From Planctomycetota bacterium (GTDB taxonomy: Bacteria > Planctomycetota > Phycisphaerae > WQYP01), in contig JAJZDN010000006.1 of assembly GCA_021805985.1 (NCBI GenBank), positions 5,786-69,785 of the forward strand: a stretch of 64,000 nucleotides of DNA, written 5' to 3'. Below, in pieces: positions 4,804 through 18,635 of the stretch. A program made the translations under genes and the position numbers. The notes below the pieces were generated by a model that worked only from the letters and a program-made list of their open reading frames with translations, ran no database searches and was not told the origin of the DNA. Each line of letters starts with the position of its first letter. Position 1 is the stretch's first letter.

Positions 4804-5031
4804 GCGTCATACTCCTGCGGCCCAGGCTAACTATTCCGGGTGAAGCCGCAGAAGGAGTAATTCAAATGTCATGCCAGCTTGTGAGGATATGACGTAAGTA
4901 GTTTTATATAAGCAAGTTATGGTAAAAACGGTGCGACATGCCCTTTGACATTATCACCCCCGTATAGGCATTTTATGTTCGATTGATGTACACTGGATGT
5001 ATAGTGCCAATGGAATCTGGAGACCCCTCTC

Positions 5032-6552
5032 ATGGCCTTATTGAATTCCGATGAACTCCCGCTGGCTCAGGCCATCGCGCAACTGACGTTCTGCAATCCC
5101 TTTGTGCCGGAGCGAAGAGAATTGGAGCGCGCGGTCCTGGGTGATGAATATGTTGCCGCGGATACGTCCTGGAACTTCCCCGCCACCGGGCAGATGGAAC
5201 GCCCGAACGAAACGCGCACACGGGAAAAAGTTGCGGCATTTGTTGCCACGCTCCGCCGCCGGATGACGGGCAAGGCCGCGCCGAGTTTACACGAATGGCG
5301 GCTCTATCAGGATGCCGTGGTGCATTATCTATTTTATGCTCTGGAAGGTGATTTTTATCGCACAGCAACGGACCGAAAAAGTAACGCGACTTATGCTGAT
5401 CTGTACGCCCGTTACCTGGAGATATTCCATGACCTTCTGGAAAAGCCGGCAGCGGGGCGCGCGTGTCACTATCGGGCGGAACATTTATTTGCCTGCTGCT
5501 ATCAAGTCACGCGCGCGTTTCAGGGAATTTACCGTTCCATTATCGGGTTTTCGCCTTGTATGATTGATCTGCGGGCCAAGGTTTGGGAGTCCATTTTCAC
5601 CCATAACATGCGCCTTTACCAACTGGAGCTGTACGACAAAATGGGCGACATCGCCACGCTGATCATCGGACCTTCCGGCACCGGCAAAGAACGCGTGGCG
5701 CAGGCCATTGCACAGGCCCGCTATCTGCCCTTTAATACCGCCACAAAACGTTTTGCCGATGTGCCGGAGAAGTTATTTTCCACCACCGTTCTCTCCGCTT
5801 TATCACCCCATCTCATTGAGTCGGAACTTTTCGGCCACGCCCGCGGGTCATTTACCGGAGCACTGGCCGACCGCAAGGGACGCTTGGAATCATGCCCGCC
5901 GCACGGGTCATTATTTCTTGATGAAATCGGCGACGCCGATGAGCAGATTCAGGTAAAGCTGCTGCGCGTGCTGCAATACCGCGTCTTTGAGCGCGTGGGC
6001 GATAGTGTGCCTCGCACTTTCCGTGGCAAAATTATCGCGGCCACCAACCATGATCTGGCCCACGACATGCATAGCGGCAAATTCCGCCAGGACTTTTATT
6101 TTCGCCTCTGTTCCGATGTCATCGCCACGCCGTCTCTGCGACAGCAATTTACCCAGGCCCCGGAAGATGTGGACAATCTGATCAACTTTATAACGCAGCA
6201 ATTTATCCCCGGCGAACACGACCGCCGGAAGCTCAACGCCGACGTCAAATTATGGATCACCGATCATCCCGGTTATGCGTGGCCGGGAAATTTCCGGGAG
6301 CTTGAACAGTGCGTAAAAAACATTCTAGTGCGGCGCAACTATCAGCCGCCGGAATTATCGCCTGGCGATGACCAATCTCCCGATTTAACCCGGATTCGCA
6401 ACGGCGTAATGACAGAGCAGGAACTGTTGAACTTTTACACCAGACTGGTATACCAAAAAGCCGGCACCTACGAATCCGCCGCGCGGAGCCTCGGCATCGA
6501 CCGCCGAACCGTAAAATCCCGCGTCAGCGGCCTGGGGATTTTCACGAGGTGA
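5032..6552 (+). CDS. sigma-54-dependent transcriptional activator (AAA+ sigma-54 interaction domain plus C-terminal HTH)
   Basis: Walker A GPSGTGKE. ESELFGHARGSFTGA motif (GAFTGA variant GSFTGA). C-terminal Fis-like HTH (SAARSLGIDRRTVKSRV). N-terminal ~200 aa sensory domain not recognisable. RBS GGAG before ATG. Confidence 0.8.
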   Translation: MALLNSDELPLAQAIAQLTFCNPFVPERRELERAVLGDEYVAADTSWNFPATGQMERPNETRTREKVAAFVATLRRRMTGKAAPSLHEWRLYQDAVVHYLFYALEGDFYRTATDRKSNATYADLYARYLEIFHDLLEKPAAGRACHYRAEHLFACCYQVTRAFQGIYRSIIGFSPCMIDLRAKVWESIFTHNMRLYQLELYDKMGDIATLIIGPSGTGKERVAQAIAQARYLPFNTATKRFADVPEKLFSTTVLSALSPHLIESELFGHARGSFTGALADRKGRLESCPPHGSLFLDEIGDADEQIQVKLLRVLQYRVFERVGDSVPRTFRGKIIAATNHDLAHDMHSGKFRQDFYFRLCSDVIATPSLRQQFTQAPEDVDNLINFITQQFIPGEHDRRKLNADVKLWITDHPGYAWPGNFRELEQCVKNILVRRNYQPPELSPGDDQSPDLTRIRNGVMTEQELLNFYTRLVYQKAGTYESAARSLGIDRRTVKSRVSGLGIFTR

Positions 6553-11402: not shown

Positions 11403-11762
11403 TTAAACAATTTTACAGGGAATCATGGCATCTTCGTCCAATTTATAAACGGCACAGAGCCGGTGATAACCATCGGCGATGATTAGTTTGCCGTTAGCTT
11501 GGTCTCTGCAAAGCAACAGCGGCGACAATTTTCCGCCGCCGGTAATCGCGTCCACATCCTTCTCAACATGACTGTTGCTGACTCCCAGCAAAGACAGCTC
11601 GGAGGATCGGAAAATGTCTTTTGCCGCAAATTCAGTCATATCGGCCCGTTTCAATTTGCTTGCAATAGCATCGGCTTTGCGTTGACTCATCGTCAAGCTC
11701 AAATAGCGGGCGGCAGCGCGATAATCATGCTTTTGCGGCTTGTCCAACCATTTAATTTTCAT
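11403..11762 (-). CDS. small ParB/Srx-like (ParBc nuclease-domain) protein
   Basis: IIADGYHRLCAVYKLDEDAMIPCKIV resembles the ParBc core lidGhhRl.A...ipv.v. 119 aa, no DNA-binding HTH. Confidence 0.4.
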   Translation of the reverse strand: MKIKWLDKPQKHDYRAAARYLSLTMSQRKADAIASKLKRADMTEFAAKDIFRSSELSLLGVSNSHVEKDVDAITGGGKLSPLLLCRDQANGKLIIADGYHRLCAVYKLDEDAMIPCKIV

Positions 11763-11925
11763 AGATCGTCCTTAATACTGTGGCCATAAACCGACTTCAG
11801 TCTGCGTTACAACCGGCTGAAAGTTCGCCGACGAGCGCGATATTATTTAAGCTCCAATAATCTGTTGCCCGCTATTCATTATATCCATCATATACCATGA
11901 AAATCCGGTGGTTAATACCGGATTC

Positions 11926-13962
11926 TCATCGTGAACCAGACGCGATGCGCTTCAAAAATTCTTCTTCATCTATCACTTCCACGCCGAGTTTGCGGGCTTT
12001 TTCCAGCTTACTGCCCGCATCTTCCCCCGCGACTACAAGTGTTGTATTTTTGCTCACGCTTTCGCCGGCTTTTCCGCCCAGGGATTCAATAAGGGCCTTG
12101 ATTTCATGCCGGGCGTAATGCTGGAGTTTACCGGTTACCACCACCGTTTTTCCGCTCAGCGGACCGCTGGCCTGTCGCACGCGGGCCGGCGTGGCCTTTA
12201 CGCCTACCGATTCCAGCTCGCGCAGTAACTCCAGTCCACCAAGTTCATGGAGGAAGCGGTGCAAACTTTGCGCGACCACTTCTCCCACGCCTTCTACAGC
12301 CTGGAAATCAGCGACCGACGCTTTGGCTAAGCAATCCACAGAAGGGAAATTTTCCGCAATATCTTCCGCCGTGCGCACGCCCACATGCAAAATTCCCAAT
12401 CCCCCCAGCAGGCGTTCCAGCCCGCGGCTTTTGCTTTCGGCGATCGCCGCAATAAGAGTGGCCGCCGATTTTTCACCCATGCGGTCCAAACCCGCAACAT
12501 CCTGCAGAGTCACACGGTATAAGTCCGGCAGATTCTTTACCAAGCCCCTGGCTAAAAGCTGCTGCACCACCGCCGGTCCCAGATTTTCAATATCCATCTG
12601 GTCCCGGGCGCCAAAAAACAGCAACCGCTCTTCGCGTTGCGCGGGGCAGGCCAGATTCGGGCAGCGAACAAATCCCCCATCACGCACCGCTGAGGATCCA
12701 CAGGAGGGGCAAAGTGTCGGCGGGGCAATGACCTGCGCATCGGCGGGGCGTTTGGCGGCAACTACTCCGACCACATAAGGAATTACTTCGCCGGCTTTCT
12801 GCACAATCACGCGGTCATGCAGGTGGATATCCTTACGGACAATTTCATCAAAATTATGCAAACTGGCGCGGTAGACTTGCGTACCGCTGATAAACACCGG
12901 CGGCTCAAATTCCGCCACCGGGGTGATTGTCCCAGTTTTGCCCACCTGGAACACTACGCGCGCTAATTGCGTTTCCGCTTGCTCCGGCTGATATTTAAAA
13001 GCAATGCACCAGCGCGGGGCACGGGATGTGGTGCCTAGCTGCTGGCGCTGTGCCAACACATTCACTTTTACAACCACACCGTCCGTGTCATAGGGGAGAT
13101 CTTTCCGTTGGTCATTAAAGCGATGAATAAATTGGAGAGCCGCGTCAATATCCTCCGCGGGGGCAATATGCTCCGATATTGGAAAGCCCAGCAATTTCAG
13201 ATAGGTCAGCCATTGTTGATACGTGGAAAATTCAAAGCCTTCCACGACGCCCTGCCCGTGGGGCAGGAAACGCAGCTTTCGTGCCGCTACCGTGCGCGGG
13301 TCCAAAAGCTTCAGCGTGCCGGCGGCGGTATTTCGCGGATTGGCATAGGCTTCTTCCCCCATGGCCTCCTGTCGCTGGTTGATGGTTAAGAATTGCATGC
13401 GGGTTAAATAAGTTTCACCCCGGACTTCCAGCACGGGTGGAATGTGTTTTGGAAAATCCCCGCCCGGCGGATTTTTCGGATCAGAAAGCCGGAGGGGAAT
13501 ATCATAAATGGTCCGGGCATTTTGCGTGACATCATCGCCATTTTCACCATCGCCGCGGGTGGCGGCCTGCGTGAGAAAGCCCTTTTCATAACGCAAGGAA
13601 AGCGATACGCCATCAATCTTTGGCTCACAGATATAACTAAACGCCTGTCCCTCCAGCAGTTTCCGCACACGCTGATCAAATTCGCGGACTTCGCCTTCGC
13701 TGTACGTATTATCAATGGAAATCATGGGTATACCATGATGAACCGCAGCGAAAGCCCGCAGGGGGCTGCCGCCCACACGCTGCGTCGGGGAATCAGGTGT
13801 TATAAGGTCCGGATGCGCCTGTTCCAGATCGTTAAGCTTGTGCATCAGCGCATCATAGGCCTGATCGGAAATCTCCGGCTTGGCGTGCTGATAATAAAGT
13901 TCATCATGCCGCCGAATCTCATCCCGCAGCAAATCCAGTTCATGTTCCACACTTTTGCCCAT
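11926..13962 (-). CDS. ligA: NAD-dependent DNA ligase LigA
   Basis: KIDGVSLSL adenylation motif (KxDG), OB fold, Zn-finger cysteines (CPSCGS...CPNLAC), HhH region and C-terminal BRCT. Start trimmed to MGKSVEHELD. Confidence 0.9.
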   Translation of the reverse strand: MGKSVEHELDLLRDEIRRHDELYYQHAKPEISDQAYDALMHKLNDLEQAHPDLITPDSPTQRVGGSPLRAFAAVHHGIPMISIDNTYSEGEVREFDQRVRKLLEGQAFSYICEPKIDGVSLSLRYEKGFLTQAATRGDGENGDDVTQNARTIYDIPLRLSDPKNPPGGDFPKHIPPVLEVRGETYLTRMQFLTINQRQEAMGEEAYANPRNTAAGTLKLLDPRTVAARKLRFLPHGQGVVEGFEFSTYQQWLTYLKLLGFPISEHIAPAEDIDAALQFIHRFNDQRKDLPYDTDGVVVKVNVLAQRQQLGTTSRAPRWCIAFKYQPEQAETQLARVVFQVGKTGTITPVAEFEPPVFISGTQVYRASLHNFDEIVRKDIHLHDRVIVQKAGEVIPYVVGVVAAKRPADAQVIAPPTLCPSCGSSAVRDGGFVRCPNLACPAQREERLLFFGARDQMDIENLGPAVVQQLLARGLVKNLPDLYRVTLQDVAGLDRMGEKSAATLIAAIAESKSRGLERLLGGLGILHVGVRTAEDIAENFPSVDCLAKASVADFQAVEGVGEVVAQSLHRFLHELGGLELLRELESVGVKATPARVRQASGPLSGKTVVVTGKLQHYARHEIKALIESLGGKAGESVSKNTTLVVAGEDAGSKLEKARKLGVEVIDEEEFLKRIASGSR

Positions 13963-13985
13963 GCTGAAAGTTATACCTCGGAAAA

Positions 13986-14942
13986 CTAATGCGGATTCTT
14001 GAATGTCGGAAGATGTTCTCCAATATGGCCAATGAGGATTTTCTCGTCGCCATCGCACCATTCAAAATATATTCGGCCAGCACCGGGGGTGAATCTCACG
14101 TGCCAACTGAAACACCGGGTCATCCCGTCTGGACACATAAAGGTATGCTCGTCACGATAGCGGGTCAGCGTCACTTGGCTCTCTGGGGTTATCTTAGAGG
14201 GGGGCTGTTGCAGCCAGAGGTCCCGTTGTCGCCCGGAAAACTCTTCGCACCATGAATTGAGATCCTCGAGCCGCTTAATGATCTGCCTGATTTCATCCCC
14301 ATTCCATGAGAACTGGGATAACATCTCCCGCACACGCTCGCAAAATAGAAGTCGAGGAAATTTCCGCTGGCGGTTTGTCCAAAGTTCATCGTGGTCGGCA
14401 AAAGTTTCCTTTGTCTTGGCTTTAATCCACTTCTTATGCTCGGCGGCATGCTCAAGTTTAGACACGTGTTTAAGGCGCTCTTGACTCTGCAATAAAGCCG
14501 CGTCCTCGCCAAGTTCGCTTACATCCACGCAGAGGGACGAGCAATCCCACTCCGGGGCGGATAGGAAACTGACGACGATCCCGTCGTTAAGATACGCTTC
14601 CAGCATCCCCAAGGCAGGTCTTGAGCAGTGAAGTACCTCGCATCCAAGCGCCCGGTCTCCATGTAAACCATCACCGAGGAATGGTACTTTCGTGGTAAGC
14701 GACCTAAATAATTGCTTTAACTCTCGGTCAACACTCAGATTCTCGCACCAGTGGCCTACCCGGAAGTTTGGCGAAATTTCGACATTAAAGAATCCGGTGG
14801 GAATATGTAGCGCCACTGGGCTGGCAGCCTTTTGTATGCCGACCATCGCCCTTGCGAAGGTTTCCAATCGTTCCCGCGCGAGGCCATGGCTTGGTGCCAT
14901 CGACTGTAGCGAGAGTTCGTTAAAGAAGCACTCCAGGCTCAC
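13986..14942 (-). CDS. hypothetical protein, third gene of the DUF262-ATPase operon; C-terminus resembles a RelE/HigB (Gp49)-type toxin motif
   Basis: Start overlaps the stop of the ATPase gene (14939-14942). C-terminal ...GAGRIYFEWCDGDEKILIGHIGEHLP resembles the conserved C-terminal strand-loop of RelE/ParE/HigB-superfamily toxins. No other family recognised. Confidence 0.5.
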   Translation of the reverse strand: MSLECFFNELSLQSMAPSHGLARERLETFARAMVGIQKAASPVALHIPTGFFNVEISPNFRVGHWCENLSVDRELKQLFRSLTTKVPFLGDGLHGDRALGCEVLHCSRPALGMLEAYLNDGIVVSFLSAPEWDCSSLCVDVSELGEDAALLQSQERLKHVSKLEHAAEHKKWIKAKTKETFADHDELWTNRQRKFPRLLFCERVREMLSQFSWNGDEIRQIIKRLEDLNSWCEEFSGRQRDLWLQQPPSKITPESQVTLTRYRDEHTFMCPDGMTRCFSWHVRFTPGAGRIYFEWCDGDEKILIGHIGEHLPTFKNPH

Positions 14943-16078
14943 GGCTCGTTCTCCCGCGGGAGAATCAGTTCTCCAAGGGCCTTGTCAAGCTCATCAAAGA
15001 AGCCTGCGGGCCAGTTGTCAATCCGACCGTCCGCGCTGATTTTCGGGGAAATTATAGAGGTTTGGGCCTCCGTCCCCTCCGCGTGACTGCCGAAGTAATG
15101 GATTGCGACATCTTGGGGTGCCAGTATCTCGTTTCGTACAGCCAAACGAACTGCGTTCAAGACATGATCACTGTGGCTTTCCATAAGTATTTGTAAGCCG
15201 GAGGCGGCCGCTCTGCATATTAATTCCGCTATTTTTGACTGCCCGCGCGGGTGAAGGTGGGCCTCGGGGTTCTCCACCAATAAAAGCCCGCCGCGCCTGG
15301 AGCTTAAAAGCGCCACCACAATCGGCAGGGTATACGTGATTCCGAATCCGACATTGGTGGTCCGGTAGGGGCGGCTGACGTCCCCCATGCGAGCGAAGGA
15401 GTATTTCAGCGAAACGGTATCAGTGGCCTCCTGGGCGACGCATGAAATCCGGAGGCCCGGTGCAACCTCCTGCATCCAAGCCTCCACTTGTTCCTTCAGG
15501 GTTGTTGCGTCTCCCTGGGTACTGCGTGGATGCCACATTTTGGGGACGCCCTGCAGTTTCTCTGATCCGAACTTCATAAGAAAATCGGAAGCGTAGCGCC
15601 CATCATTTCCCAGTTGGCGTTTCAGGTGCACCAAGTGCTCGGATGTGTCATAGGCCGTTCGTGGGCCTACCCGTTCCGCCTGGAGATAACAAAAGTCACT
15701 GCCAAAAATATTGGCGTTTTGAATCGACGCCCAGTTCGGACCCGCAGCAAGCTGCATCACATCCTCGTTGCGATTGTATGCAAACCTCCATCTCGCAATG
15801 CCCCCTAGTGACTGGGTGATTTCAATTTCAACAAAATCCTCATCCGCATTTTCATACAGTACGTCAATACCCCGCCCCGCCCGTAACAATTCGCCATCCA
15901 GCAACAGGCCCCCGCCGCGCAGCAGTCCTTGGTCGTACGACTGTCTAAGCAGCAGCAACGATTGAATCACTGAGCTTTTTCCCGTGCCATTTGCGCCGGT
16001 GAGTAACGTCAGGGGCGCAAGTCGCAGGGAAGCCTCCCTGAAGCATTTAAAATTATGCAGCCTCAATTTTTCGAGCAT
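14939..16078 (-). CDS. AAA_21/ABC-type ATPase with DUF3696-like C-terminal region (OLD/AbiL/Septu-like ATPase class)
   Basis: Walker A LLTGANGTGKSS near the N-terminus. Walker B/D-loop LLLVENPEAHLHP and a downstream H-loop. About 380 aa. Overlaps the upstream DUF262 gene by 16 nt. Confidence 0.8.
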   Translation of the reverse strand: MLEKLRLHNFKCFREASLRLAPLTLLTGANGTGKSSVIQSLLLLRQSYDQGLLRGGGLLLDGELLRAGRGIDVLYENADEDFVEIEITQSLGGIARWRFAYNRNEDVMQLAAGPNWASIQNANIFGSDFCYLQAERVGPRTAYDTSEHLVHLKRQLGNDGRYASDFLMKFGSEKLQGVPKMWHPRSTQGDATTLKEQVEAWMQEVAPGLRISCVAQEATDTVSLKYSFARMGDVSRPYRTTNVGFGITYTLPIVVALLSSRRGGLLLVENPEAHLHPRGQSKIAELICRAAASGLQILMESHSDHVLNAVRLAVRNEILAPQDVAIHYFGSHAEGTEAQTSIISPKISADGRIDNWPAGFFDELDKALGELILPRENEP

Positions 16079-17340
16079 TGCAATACACTTTCCACAAGTT
16101 CTTGAACAGCTGAAAATCGTAGTCTTACTTTTCCAACATCTCCCGTGCCTTGAGAAATTGCATTCAGAAAAGCTTGGCTCCTCAGCAATTCTTCCACCTT
16201 GCCCAGCAGCAATTCCTTCCGGGACTTCAACGCGTCGATTTGTTCATCGCTAAGCCGATCGAGATTCACTGACCACGTTTCGAATAGGGCCTTGTTTATG
16301 GGCATAAGCCGATTCTCTTTGCCAGCCTTACGAAAGGCCTTCTTCCCCAACAAATCACTACAAGCTTTCATAGCTCGTTTGAACCGCAAAGAGAGCTCGC
16401 TTAGTTGATGGTCACCCATCTTGTTTAATTCTTGCATTTTCTGGTTAAGAAAGGCATCAAAATCTCTGCTCTCATAATCGGTGTAAGGGGTTGTCGCAAA
16501 CGCGATAAACCGCAGCACAAACTCGCGGTCCGCCATGCGCGCTCCCGGCACCGCCTCGGACGTAGCCACTTTGAACTCCTGGGCTTGGGCCAGGTCCTTC
16601 AGAAGAGTGGTACTTTTTCCCTGGTTAAGAGCGTGGCGTATTTCCTGCGCGGAAAGCGGAAGCCCACCCGTATTGATACGTTTGAATATATTGAACTTAA
16701 CCTCGGGCGGAGTGCCCTTCTCGATCAAATATGCAGTCACCTGAGTTTCAAGAATGCGCCTTTGTAAATGGCGGGGCAAACTGTCAAAACCCTTTGACTC
16801 CTGCTCCCCCAGGAACTCCATGCCACTTAGCTTGAGGGTTTTTTCCAAAACAAACCTCTTGAGGGAGGTGAGCCGCTGCAATCCGTCCACGACAAGCCAC
16901 TTGTCCTCGTCAGTGGCGTCCATGTAGAAAGCGGGCAGGGGAATGCGTATCAGTAATGATTCTATCAGCCTGCTTTGCGCCTTCTCGCTCCATAGTCCTC
17001 CTTGCCGCTGAAAATCCGGGGCTAAATCAATTTCCTTGTGCTTAATGCGGTTCAAAAGCAGGTCAATGGTGATCGGTTTTGTCTCGACGCGTATTACAGT
17101 TGGATCAAACGGATTATTAATGACGTCCGATCCCGTGGTGTCTTCTAGCTCCACGCCTGCTTCGGTGCCCTCTTCAACTTCCGTGATAGTCTCTGTCTGC
17201 AAAGCCATAGATAGCTCGCTCCAATTAAAGTTCCCGGTACAGCATAACACAAAATTTGCCGGGGTGGATATCAGGTCAACAACCCGGTGTTGGCGGTCCT
17301 TGTCTGTAGGAGTCTTTTCTGATTCACTGGTAAAGCCCAC
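16063..17340 (-). CDS. DUF262 (GmrSD N-terminal, ParB-like DGQQR) domain protein
   Basis: PDFQR...W...LIESLLIRIPLP followed by VVDGLQRLTSL (DGQQR-type motif) are DUF262 hallmarks. No C-terminal DUF1524/HNH recognisable. Confidence 0.8.
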   Translation of the reverse strand: MGFTSESEKTPTDKDRQHRVVDLISTPANFVLCCTGNFNWSELSMALQTETITEVEEGTEAGVELEDTTGSDVINNPFDPTVIRVETKPITIDLLLNRIKHKEIDLAPDFQRQGGLWSEKAQSRLIESLLIRIPLPAFYMDATDEDKWLVVDGLQRLTSLKRFVLEKTLKLSGMEFLGEQESKGFDSLPRHLQRRILETQVTAYLIEKGTPPEVKFNIFKRINTGGLPLSAQEIRHALNQGKSTTLLKDLAQAQEFKVATSEAVPGARMADREFVLRFIAFATTPYTDYESRDFDAFLNQKMQELNKMGDHQLSELSLRFKRAMKACSDLLGKKAFRKAGKENRLMPINKALFETWSVNLDRLSDEQIDALKSRKELLLGKVEELLRSQAFLNAISQGTGDVGKVRLRFSAVQELVESVLQCSKN

Positions 17341-17360: not shown

Positions 17361-18635
17361 TTAGTTCCGGACGCCGCCAGGTATGGCTACGGGGGCAACT
17401 CCCGGAAACGGGCCGCGAACGGGTGGCCGTACTGCGGGTGCAGCGGCACCGGCTTGAATTGGCGGTGTCGGAATCACACCGCGTTGTTTCCAGAATTTTA
17501 ACATCGCCTTGATGGTTGTTTCTTCCTGCACCTGTGTGTTAAACAGCCAACTACCGCCATACAGGGCGGATTTGAAAAGATGATAATGCTGCGGCTTATG
17601 GCCGGAGAGCAGCACCAGCAGATACAGTGGAATGGTGCGATTATCCCAATGTACACTTTGGCCATTAAATACAAAATTGATCTGATTGGCCTGGGGGCGG
17701 CAAATTAAATTAAGCAGGTAGGGTGCCGCCAGCAGGGGTTTATATTGTGCAAACAGTTTAATAAAATTGCGGCCCTGTAACATGCTGGGATTCTGAAGAA
17801 TATCATTGGCTCCGGATTGCCGCGCCATTTTTTCTGTATAGTTCACCAACATGGATTTCAAGTGACGGGGGTGCCAGTGCTGCAATAATTGGGCCGCATA
17901 TTGCCCATCCTGTGCCTGCTGCCAGTAATTGACAAAGTGCATAATGTAAATCTTCTGGCCATTAAACCGCACGACCTGCCGCGTGGTGGCACCACTGTAC
18001 ATGGTCGTATTGCCCACGGATCGGTGGAAGACAATCTGCACCATTTTCTCGGATGGCTTGCGGTTCCACAGAGCGGCCATGGTTGAAAGATACACCACAC
18101 GCCGGCGGTCACGCAGCAGACGATCCAATATCCAGTCGCTGCTGCTGCCCGGAATTTTTACCAAACCCTGGGCCGATGACGCACGGATGTCCGCGCGCCG
18201 CGCAAAGGCTGCTCCCACCAGCGGCAGCACACCAGGTTTAATGCCCCAGTCAAACATGGCCATGCGTTTTTCCTGGGGCAATTTGATCACCGCCATGGTC
18301 CAGCGGTCCAGATTAATGTTAAAATTCAGCAGTTTAATCAATCGTGTTGCCTGTTCCGGGCCACCCGCATTGATGATGGCGTGCAACTGCAGGCCCAGAG
18401 CGGTTTGAATAATTTTGTTGGCATGTTGGCGCACGCTGTACCGTTCAGAGGATAAATCTTTTAACCCCTGGGCCAACATGGCGGAAACTTTGTCAGATAT
18501 TGCCGGAGAAGCTGCCGGGTCGGGGCTCTTGGCGTGCAGGCAGGAGGAACCACCCAATGGAATTATCACAGCGGTTACCATCACGGCAACTGCGGCTAAA
18601 TTCTTAAACAGAGATTGTTGGTTCGTGAGGGTCAT
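17361..18635 (-). CDS. hypothetical lipoprotein/secreted protein with proline-rich C-terminus
   Basis: N-terminal signal/lipobox-like segment (AVIIPLGGSSC). C-terminal PPV/GAP-rich tail. Confidence 0.45.
   Translation of the reverse strand: MTLTNQQSLFKNLAAVAVMVTAVIIPLGGSSCLHAKSPDPAASPAISDKVSAMLAQGLKDLSSERYSVRQHANKIIQTALGLQLHAIINAGGPEQATRLIKLLNFNINLDRWTMAVIKLPQEKRMAMFDWGIKPGVLPLVGAAFARRADIRASSAQGLVKIPGSSSDWILDRLLRDRRRVVYLSTMAALWNRKPSEKMVQIVFHRSVGNTTMYSGATTRQVVRFNGQKIYIMHFVNYWQQAQDGQYAAQLLQHWHPRHLKSMLVNYTEKMARQSGANDILQNPSMLQGRNFIKLFAQYKPLLAAPYLLNLICRPQANQINFVFNGQSVHWDNRTIPLYLLVLLSGHKPQHYHLFKSALYGGSWLFNTQVQEETTIKAMLKFWKQRGVIPTPPIQAGAAAPAVRPPVRGPFPGVAPVAIPGGVRN

Follow-up and report, generated by a model that had tools for sequence, protein, structure and literature searches.

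An NsnC effector with a predicted RelE/YoeB-like C-terminal domain in a type I Menshen operon of a planctomycete

A 64,000-nucleotide stretch of contig JAJZDN010000006.1 (assembly GCA_021805985.1) from a Planctomycetota bacterium, referred to here as the window, contains on its reverse strand an open reading frame (ORF; 13986..14942) that raises the question of why a tail reminiscent of the small RelE/ParE/HigB toxins should terminate a much longer protein encoded beside an ABC ATPase. A preliminary description of the sequence had suggested a ribosome-dependent ribonuclease (RNase) effector domain carried on a larger scaffold. The present analysis indicates that the ORF very probably encodes the effector NsnC of an anti-phage system, Menshen type I (NsnA–NsnB–NsnC), with its C-terminal 123 residues forming a RelE/YoeB-type domain of BECR, the Barnase/EndoU/Colicin/RelE superfamily.

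The nsnABC operon and its relatives

Profile searches identify all three genes (Table 1). NsnA matches the PADLOC model PDLC03877 (E-value 1.9e-141, model positions 14–384 of 385), a match that takes in the C-terminal ParBDB region, and the Pfam family GmrSD_N (PF03235, DUF262; E-value 1e-22), and a Pfam scan found in it no HNH/DUF1524 nuclease domain such as that of GmrSD. NsnB matches PDLC03878 over nearly its full length (E-value 1.7e-112) together with the Pfam families AAA_15 (6e-22), AAA_21 (3.5e-20) and DUF3696 (1e-14), and also the PADLOC models for AriA, PtuA and GajA. Its Walker A (GxNxxGKS), Walker B (hhhhENPEAHLHP) and ExHSDH-loop motifs are present and are invariant in the homologs compared (74–76). 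The Walker B region (residues 265–277) reads hhhhE-N-P-E-A-H-L-H-P instead of the usual hhhhD-E; since E-N-P-E-A-H-(L/V)-H-P is essentially invariant among 75 homologs, this is a signature of the clade and not a defect. NsnC matches PDLC03879 (E-value 1.3e-78), with residues 1–312 aligned to model positions 1–304 of 305; HMMER assigned it to no Pfam family and found nothing in NCBIfam.

Start and stop codons overlap at both gene junctions, the GTG start of nsnC sharing four nucleotides (GTGA) with the TGA stop of nsnB and the stop of nsnA overlapping the start of nsnB by 16 nucleotides, and the three genes therefore form a tight, translationally coupled operon with nsnC last. The mechanically derived ORF of nsnA reaches a GTG codon at 17340 (16063..17340); the ATG used in Table 1 is favored by profile coverage and by the identical gene call in public collections. 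The preliminary description gave the ORF of nsnC exactly, and the coupling of a long protein to an ABC ATPase that it pointed out is accounted for by the adjacency of NsnB and NsnC in a Menshen operon.

Table 1. Features of the Menshen operon and its flanks (window coordinates)
Feature	Position	Strand	Description and basis
nsnA	16063..17208	−	DUF262/ParB-like (GmrSD_N) sensor protein, 381 residues from the ATG at 17208
nsnB	14939..16078	−	ABC-type ATPase with C-terminal DUF3696 helix, 379 residues
nsnC	13986..14942	−	Two-domain effector, 318 residues plus stop, GTG start
NsnC N-terminal α/β domain, residues 1–195	14358..14942	−	Published as 'inactive PIN-like' (inPIN), docking on NsnB
NsnC C-terminal RelE/YoeB-like (BECR) domain, residues 196–318	13989..14357	−	Predicted; AlphaFold2 model, Foldseek, hhalign
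Core motif H281-V-R283-F-T-P-G-A-G-R290, β2-turn-β3 hairpin	14073..14102	−	Candidate catalytic residues; conservation, hhalign
Motif GAGRIYFEWCDGDEKILIGHIGEHLPTF of the preliminary description, residues 287–314, strands β3 and β4	14001..14084	−	Model, conservation
K-[IV]-T-P-E-S motif, residues 250–255, inside the α2–β2 insertion	14178..14195	−	Conservation
ligA	11926..13962		DNA ligase gene directly downstream of nsnC
424-residue ORF	17361..18635	−	Directly upstream of nsnA; function not assigned by Pfam
Conserved 119-residue ORF	11403..11762	−	Directly downstream of ligA

The anti-phage role of Menshen was described by Millman et al. (2022), as summarized in the article by Li and coworkers (Li, Tan, Basu, Corbett and Zhang, NAR 2025; PMC12065111); there the operon of Solibacillus silvestris is credited with protection against T2, T4, T6 and Fado and is the one Menshen system reported as tested. 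The article describes NsnC as an N-terminal inactive-PIN-like domain followed by a polymorphic C-terminal effector, and places the C-terminal domains in the BECR superfamily as RNase effectors to which NsnB binds with its DUF3696 tail. In an AlphaFold3 prediction, a tetramer of NsnB carries two NsnC molecules (NsnB4–NsnC2) through the DUF3696 helices, comparable with Septu, PARIS and Gabija (PMC12065111). Most Menshen loci are of type I, in which NsnA lacks an additional sensor domain at its N-terminus, and carry a PB-BECR1 domain, while other Menshen systems have Toprim, PLD or Ntox domains in the effector position (PMC12065111). The reading of NsnC as a scaffold bearing a RelE-like effector domain was thus reached independently by these authors and in the preliminary description.

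The window operon has the same three genes in the same order as the known system. Its NsnA consists of a DUF262/ParB domain with no additional N-terminal sensor domain, as in type I, and its NsnB likewise adds a DUF3696 tail to an ABC ATPase. NsnC resembles its described counterparts, of about 310 residues, in joining an N-terminal α/β domain to a C-terminal domain of predicted BECR type. It differs in its host, a Phycisphaerae-like planctomycete, and in its divergence: the exact protein occurs in public assemblies, but the closest other NsnC known from databases reaches only 47% identity. The best relative in the genome collection comes from a metagenome-assembled genome of the Phycisphaerales.

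A profile of the C-terminal 123 residues recovered 1390 clusters (50% identity; E-value up to 1e-3) among 1.84 billion representative sequences. Nearly all of the best 150 of these 1390 clusters are about 300–320 residues long, with the domain at the C-terminus. Because the family is this large, it is probably PB-BECR1, the prevalent family of NsnC C-terminal domains. The core motif, searched as the pattern HxR[FY]TPGAGR in one genome per species (185,579 species, 596 Gb), occurs at 125 places, 100 of which encode NsnC relatives, and is almost exclusive to the NsnC family in these genomes. The hosts include Phycisphaerales, Acidobacteriota, Desulfobacterales, Nitrospirota, Bacteroidota, Myxococcota, Alpha- and Gammaproteobacteria and many Actinomycetota. 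When motif-bearing loci were retrieved and searched with tblastn, nsnA and nsnB lay directly upstream on the same strand in 74 of 80; two of the remaining six have nsnB with nsnA undetected and four have an nsnC match alone, and some of the six end at a contig end. Loci L001–L003 show the same nsnA-nsnB-nsnC synteny.

The profile search found no stand-alone toxin form of the NsnC C-terminal domain. The short proteins that it returned were considered as free toxins and rejected, since they proved on inspection to be truncated or decayed nsnC genes. In locus L005 (5001–5354), a 117-residue C-terminal fragment of nsnC lies 580 nucleotides behind intact nsnA and nsnB genes, and in locus L004 of Micromonospora sp. 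DT233 (5001–5285) a solitary 94-residue fragment is left and nsnAB have been lost; both have common downstream neighbors (a 112-residue ORF, an HTH_31/DUF5753 gene and a DUF397 gene). This suggests that actinomycetes have repeatedly lost Menshen, leaving the RelE-like tail behind.

Predicted fold and conservation of NsnC

The AlphaFold2 model of full-length NsnC, calculated from a 30-sequence alignment, contains two domains (predicted local distance difference test, pLDDT, 89.6; predicted template-modeling score, pTM, 0.81), and the isolated residues 196–318 gave a model with a pLDDT of 91.3 and a pTM of 0.86. The modeled C-terminal elements are a strand (198–200), two helices (203–208 and 216–234), an insertion (235–279) and three strands (280–283, 290–296 and 301–308), an order that in the model corresponds to the β1-α1-α2-β2-β3-β4 arrangement of RelE with an insertion of about 45 residues, made up of short helices and strands, between α2 and β2. 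The motif noted in the preliminary description forms the final β-hairpin of this predicted 123-residue domain.

A Foldseek search of the PDB with the domain model returned RelE-superfamily toxins in nearly all of the top places, the first four with a probability of 0.99; target-normalized TM-scores among the leading matches were 0.54–0.67. The matches include Thermus thermophilus RelE (2khe; E-value 6.6e-3, probability 0.99), Escherichia coli RelE (2kc8 and 4fxe; target TM-score 0.53–0.62), Agrobacterium tumefaciens YoeB/ParE (6n90; target TM-score 0.67) and Helicobacter pylori HP0892 (target TM-score 0.66), followed by Mycobacterium tuberculosis RelE1 and RelE2, Staphylococcus aureus YoeB, ribosome-bound RelE (4v7k and 4v7j) and HigB2. 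The full-length model gave the same top matches, and a library of viral structures, used as an informal negative control, gave noise only (probability at most 0.35).

At the level of sequence, an alignment of 226 homologous NsnC C-terminal domains was compared with the RelE family using hhalign. This yielded a score of 21.6 (P-value 0.0033) over 86 collinear columns covering RelE residues 3–88, in an under-powered test: the RelE alignment had little depth, being limited to relatives that share 68% identity or more with E. coli RelE, and the collinear alignment was obtained only in local mode with a relaxed mact setting. Deepening the RelE alignment from the ORFs of 86 sequences contributed one further homolog. 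Scores were 8.9 for the reversed template and 7.9–14.0 for 30 column-permuted ones, the observed score lying approximately 6–7 standard deviations above the permuted nulls. The E. coli RelE query sequence itself matches PDB entries 4v7k and 4fxe over its full length.

In the hhalign alignment, FSWHVRFTPGAGRIYF falls on CYKIKLRSSGYRLVY, KILIGHIGEH on VVFVISVGKR and GAGRIYF on SGYRLVY. It pairs NsnC R283, R290, G308 and position 310 with RelE K54, R61, G79 and R81, respectively, with H281 adjoining K52. The basic or histidine residue on β2, the arginine at the start of β3 and the G-[KH] that follows β4 in NsnC would thereby align with K54, R61 and R81 of RelE; K52, K54, R61, R81 and Y87 are the residues that we take to be catalytic in the E. 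coli enzyme. This residue mapping is of low confidence, and the KITPES motif has no counterpart in the RelE alignment. A regular expression for the hairpin matched only NsnC in the window, but it had been tailored afterwards and misses E. coli RelE, and was not used as evidence.

A second line of comparison comes from the unrelated defense protein HEC-07 (Hma-embedded defense candidate), for which positions 527–550 of a 553-position PADLOC model match NsnC residues 290–313 (window 14001..14075; E-value 0.0048). The C-terminal domain of HEC-07 has been described as an HP0892-like RNase of the RelE family with His543 as a key residue (Payne et al., bioRxiv 2024, 10.1101/2024.01.29.577857). The match offers independent support for the RelE likeness of the NsnC tail, HEC-07 being a further defense protein with a RelE-family (HP0892-like) domain at its end and a histidine that has been implicated in function. 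By offset, His543 of HEC-07 would land on NsnC position 306. A second HEC-07 model in PADLOC matched elsewhere, at NsnC residues 158–238. Unlike NsnC, HEC-07 is the product of a single gene (about 553 residues) with AdoMetDC-like and thioredoxin-like N-terminal domains and has neither an ABC ATPase nor a DUF262 partner.

Residue conservation was calculated over the same 226 domains. H281 and R290 are conserved in 100% of the sequences, R283, T285 and P286 in 98%, E254 in 96%, F278 and G308 in 94% and F293 in 92%. The KITPES motif is more relaxed, with T252 in 76% (serine in a further 21%), P253 in 78% and S255 in 70%. The histidines of the IGHIGEH segment are variable: position 306 is tyrosine in 58% and histidine in 33% of the sequences, and position 310 is lysine in 76% and histidine in 18%. 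The window protein itself has H281, R283/R290 and H306/H310. Measured against the window protein, homologs have a median identity of 26% in the N-terminal domain, 39% in the C-terminal domain and 50% in the core (residues 276–311). The region of the motif is the most conserved part of the NsnC family, and the motif did not arise by chance. The likeness to RelE/ParE/HigB put forward in the preliminary description thus holds at the level of the predicted fold, in which RelE, YoeB, HigB2 and HP0892 lead the Foldseek results, and its motif is retained among homologs; in terms of sequence it stands only in part, with support from the hhalign P-value and none from HMMER.

Although the predicted fold is that of the RelE/YoeB/HigB/YafQ toxins (4FXE, 4V7J, 2KHE and HP0892), NsnC departs from them in several respects. 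Its sequence similarity to them lies below HMMER detection, it has the insertion of about 45 residues bearing the conserved KITPES motif, and the domain is fused behind 195 residues, whereas the toxins stand alone at 90 residues. Its partner is an ABC ATPase and an antitoxin gene is absent, so that it does not fit a type II RelBE-like module, in which a toxin of about 90 residues adjoins a small antitoxin gene.

The N-terminal domain (residues 1–195) consists of alternating strands and helices in the AlphaFold2 model. Among 143 homologs, N8 and S125 are conserved in 97%, W132 in 96%, S11 in 93%, G112 and W188 in 90%, H165 in 88% and H159 in 86%. These residues may form the surface that docks on NsnB or a site for a ligand or RNA. 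The inPIN domain has been proposed to be an RNA-binding targeting module (PMC12065111), and N8, S11, S125, W132, H159 and H165 of this 'inactive' domain might do more than dock on NsnB.

Candidate active site, mechanism and alternative explanations

The genes and their order lend themselves to the following mechanism. NsnA (ParB/DUF262) would sense phage DNA, by analogy with GmrSD, SspE and DndB, while NsnB would hold NsnC through its DUF3696 tail, as predicted by Li and coworkers (PMC12065111). Binding or hydrolysis of ATP by NsnB would then release NsnC or activate it allosterically, and the RelE-like domain, to judge from its fold and its invariant histidine and arginine, would cleave RNA by metal-independent acid–base catalysis, thereby halting translation and keeping the phage from replicating. 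The RNase activity, its target and its control by NsnB are what we infer from these features. A similar logic applies in Septu (PtuAB), PARIS (AriAB) and Gabija (GajAB), whose ABC ATPase oligomers hold a toxic nuclease effector or regulate it, and NsnB4–NsnC2 is predicted to have a similar architecture (PMC12065111). The Menshen effector differs from these in being a predicted RNase-type BECR domain instead of an HNH or Toprim deoxyribonuclease, and Menshen has a third component, the DUF262 sensor.

For PB-BECR1, an H-R-H triad has been described and likened in its positions to the H-D-H of YafQ (PMC12065111). Here, the alignment points to a constellation of H281, R283, R290 and E254, joined by Y/H306 and K/H310. 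In one small divergence from the literature, it is H281, R283, R290 and E254 that appear invariant in the NsnC family, and not the H-R-H triad.

Several observations weigh against the assignment of NsnC as an effector with a RelE/YoeB-type RNase domain. The residue that completes the published triad is variable (tyrosine or histidine at 306, lysine or histidine at 310). HMMER searches with NsnC and about 30 homologs at E-values of up to 10 detected none of the Pfam families of RelE, ParE, HigB, YoeB, YafQ and Gp49 (e.g. ParE_toxin, PF05016). The hhalign probability is only 9.8%, every Foldseek E-value is above 1e-3 (the best being 6.6e-3) and the root-mean-square deviations are 4–6 Å. A PIN fold for the N-terminal domain was not recovered, Foldseek giving only Rossmann-like matches of low probability. 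In the literature searched, a 2026 preprint on BECR classification that mentions Menshen excepted, no demonstration of RNase activity, of its substrate or of control by NsnB was found for any NsnC. HMMER profiles also matched no RelE-type sequence in the PDB; the matches to apolipoprotein A-I that they produced there were discarded as spurious.

The alternative that survives best, a substantial possibility though short of an even chance, is that the RNase is ribosome-independent and cuts free tRNA, rRNA or phage transcripts in the manner of colicin D/E5 or the Ntox-type BECR toxins, with its substrate recognized through the PIN-like N-terminal domain or through the 45-residue insertion. It differs from a ribosome-dependent reading in the target only. 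The BECR superfamily includes both kinds of RNase, and the role proposed for inPIN as an RNA-binding targeting module would suit such an enzyme (PMC12065111). The large conserved insertion (KITPES, with E254 at 96%) is absent from RelE, and a two-domain protein of 318 residues mounted on an ATPase tetramer may not fit into the ribosomal A site. Toxins of the RelE type that bind the ribosome are expected to be basic, whereas the NsnC C-terminal domain is not (16 Lys/Arg versus 18 Asp/Glu). However, its close structural neighbors are all ribosome-dependent mRNA interferases (RelE, YoeB, HigB2 and HP0892/YafQ-like proteins), and the hhalign pairing falls on the catalytic residues of RelE in the A site.

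A further departure is conceivable because invariance among the polar residues of the 226 sequences is confined to H281, R283 and R290 on the β2–β3 hairpin together with E254, which lies in an insertion that is absent from RelE. The published H-R-H triad would then not be the real catalytic set of this NsnC family, probably the commonest one, and its C-terminal domain would be a mechanistically distinct RelE-fold RNase in which the insertion and the PIN-like domain select a non-ribosomal RNA (tRNA or phage transcripts); this is regarded as rather unlikely.

It is improbable that the RelE-like domain lacks catalytic activity or resembles ParE, acting by binding a target (for instance by poisoning gyrase or as a module for protein interactions) with any nuclease located elsewhere, for example in NsnA. 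ParE toxins share the fold and are not known to have RNase activity, one of the best structural matches (6n90) is annotated as YoeB/ParE, and the third triad residue is variable. The conservation of H281, R283 and R290 at 98–100% and of E254 at 96% across phyla is, however, typical of an active site; the nucleolytic Toprim, PLD and Ntox domains of other Menshen systems indicate that this position holds an enzymatic effector, and NsnA has no HNH/DUF1524 nuclease domain to supply the activity.

That the operon is instead a toxin–antitoxin-like addiction module, with NsnB or the N-terminal domain acting as the antitoxin to a RelE-type toxin, is very improbable. RelE-fold toxins are classically components of such modules, the genes are translationally coupled and the operon lies among housekeeping genes (ligA, GH57 and purL) with no obvious defense island. 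Against this, the archetypal Menshen system protects against T2, T4, T6 and Fado, the synteny with the DUF262 sensor is kept in 74 of 80 genomes, and a sister contig has a type III CBASS a few kilobases away, which shows that the neighborhood accepts defense cargo; nor do the ORFs of the window include a small antitoxin gene adjoining nsnC. A coincidental likeness to RelE, with a generic β-hairpin of alternating hydrophobic residues in an unrelated fold, would explain the blindness of HMMER, whose only PDB matches were to apolipoprotein A-I, and the low hhalign probability, but can hardly be entertained given that RelE-superfamily toxins overwhelmingly head the Foldseek matches, that the alignment is topologically collinear and well above its permuted nulls and that the RelE-family defense protein HEC-07 matches the same residues.

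Genomic setting and significance of the locus

The operon lies directly upstream of ligA, the stop codon of nsnC being 23 nucleotides from the ligA start, and the housekeeping genes GH57, purL and MIP are nearby. The G+C content dips to 0.50 over 16–18 kb compared with about 0.55 elsewhere. A scan for promoters and terminators in the operon region gave nothing above shuffled sequences except a single sigma-70-like match, which runs from 14093 to 14066 inside the 3' end of nsnC, and it showed no terminator-like site between the nsnC stop and the ligA start. ligA may be read through from nsnC, or its promoter may be embedded in the defense gene.

The same arrangement of Menshen and ligA is found in three contigs with identical LigA, whereas a relative with a LigA at least 90% identical has no Menshen operon upstream of ligA. 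In one of the contigs with identical LigA (k141_397688, locus L087), a type III CBASS-like cluster (11779–14990) follows directly after the MIP gene, at a position corresponding to approximately 10500 and below in the window; it comprises a SMODS cyclase, bacHORMA_1 and an AAA ATPase, and its possible effector is a DUF6602 protein. At this place a pseudopilin gene and others are found instead in the window and in two other contigs. Because L087 has CBASS where the other contigs carry these genes, the ligA neighborhood looks like a strain-variable defense hotspot.

Two further ORFs accompany the operon. The 424-residue ORF, which has no Pfam match, begins with an apparent hydrophobic signal-like stretch and recurs alongside the operon in two sister contigs, L087 and L088. 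The 119-residue ORF is found in all three sister contigs and ends in ...IIADGYHRLCAVY..., reminiscent of the DG(H/Q)HR of ParB/sulfiredoxin-fold proteins; it has no Pfam match, and its sole match is a weak one to the NCBIfam SerK serine kinase (E-value 0.068).

A RelE-like tail on a long protein beside an ABC ATPase is therefore the standard effector of Menshen, as recognized by PADLOC. The reading is supported, yet it was already published for Menshen NsnC in 2025, and the locus is an unremarkable further NsnC. The window locus raises no new question about Menshen. Its modest additions are a type I Menshen operon, intact and directly upstream of ligA, from a Phycisphaerae-like planctomycete, independent support from structure prediction and profile alignment for a RelE/YoeB-like fold in the NsnC family, and a residue-level conservation map (H281, R283, R290 and E254) that provides targets for mutagenesis.

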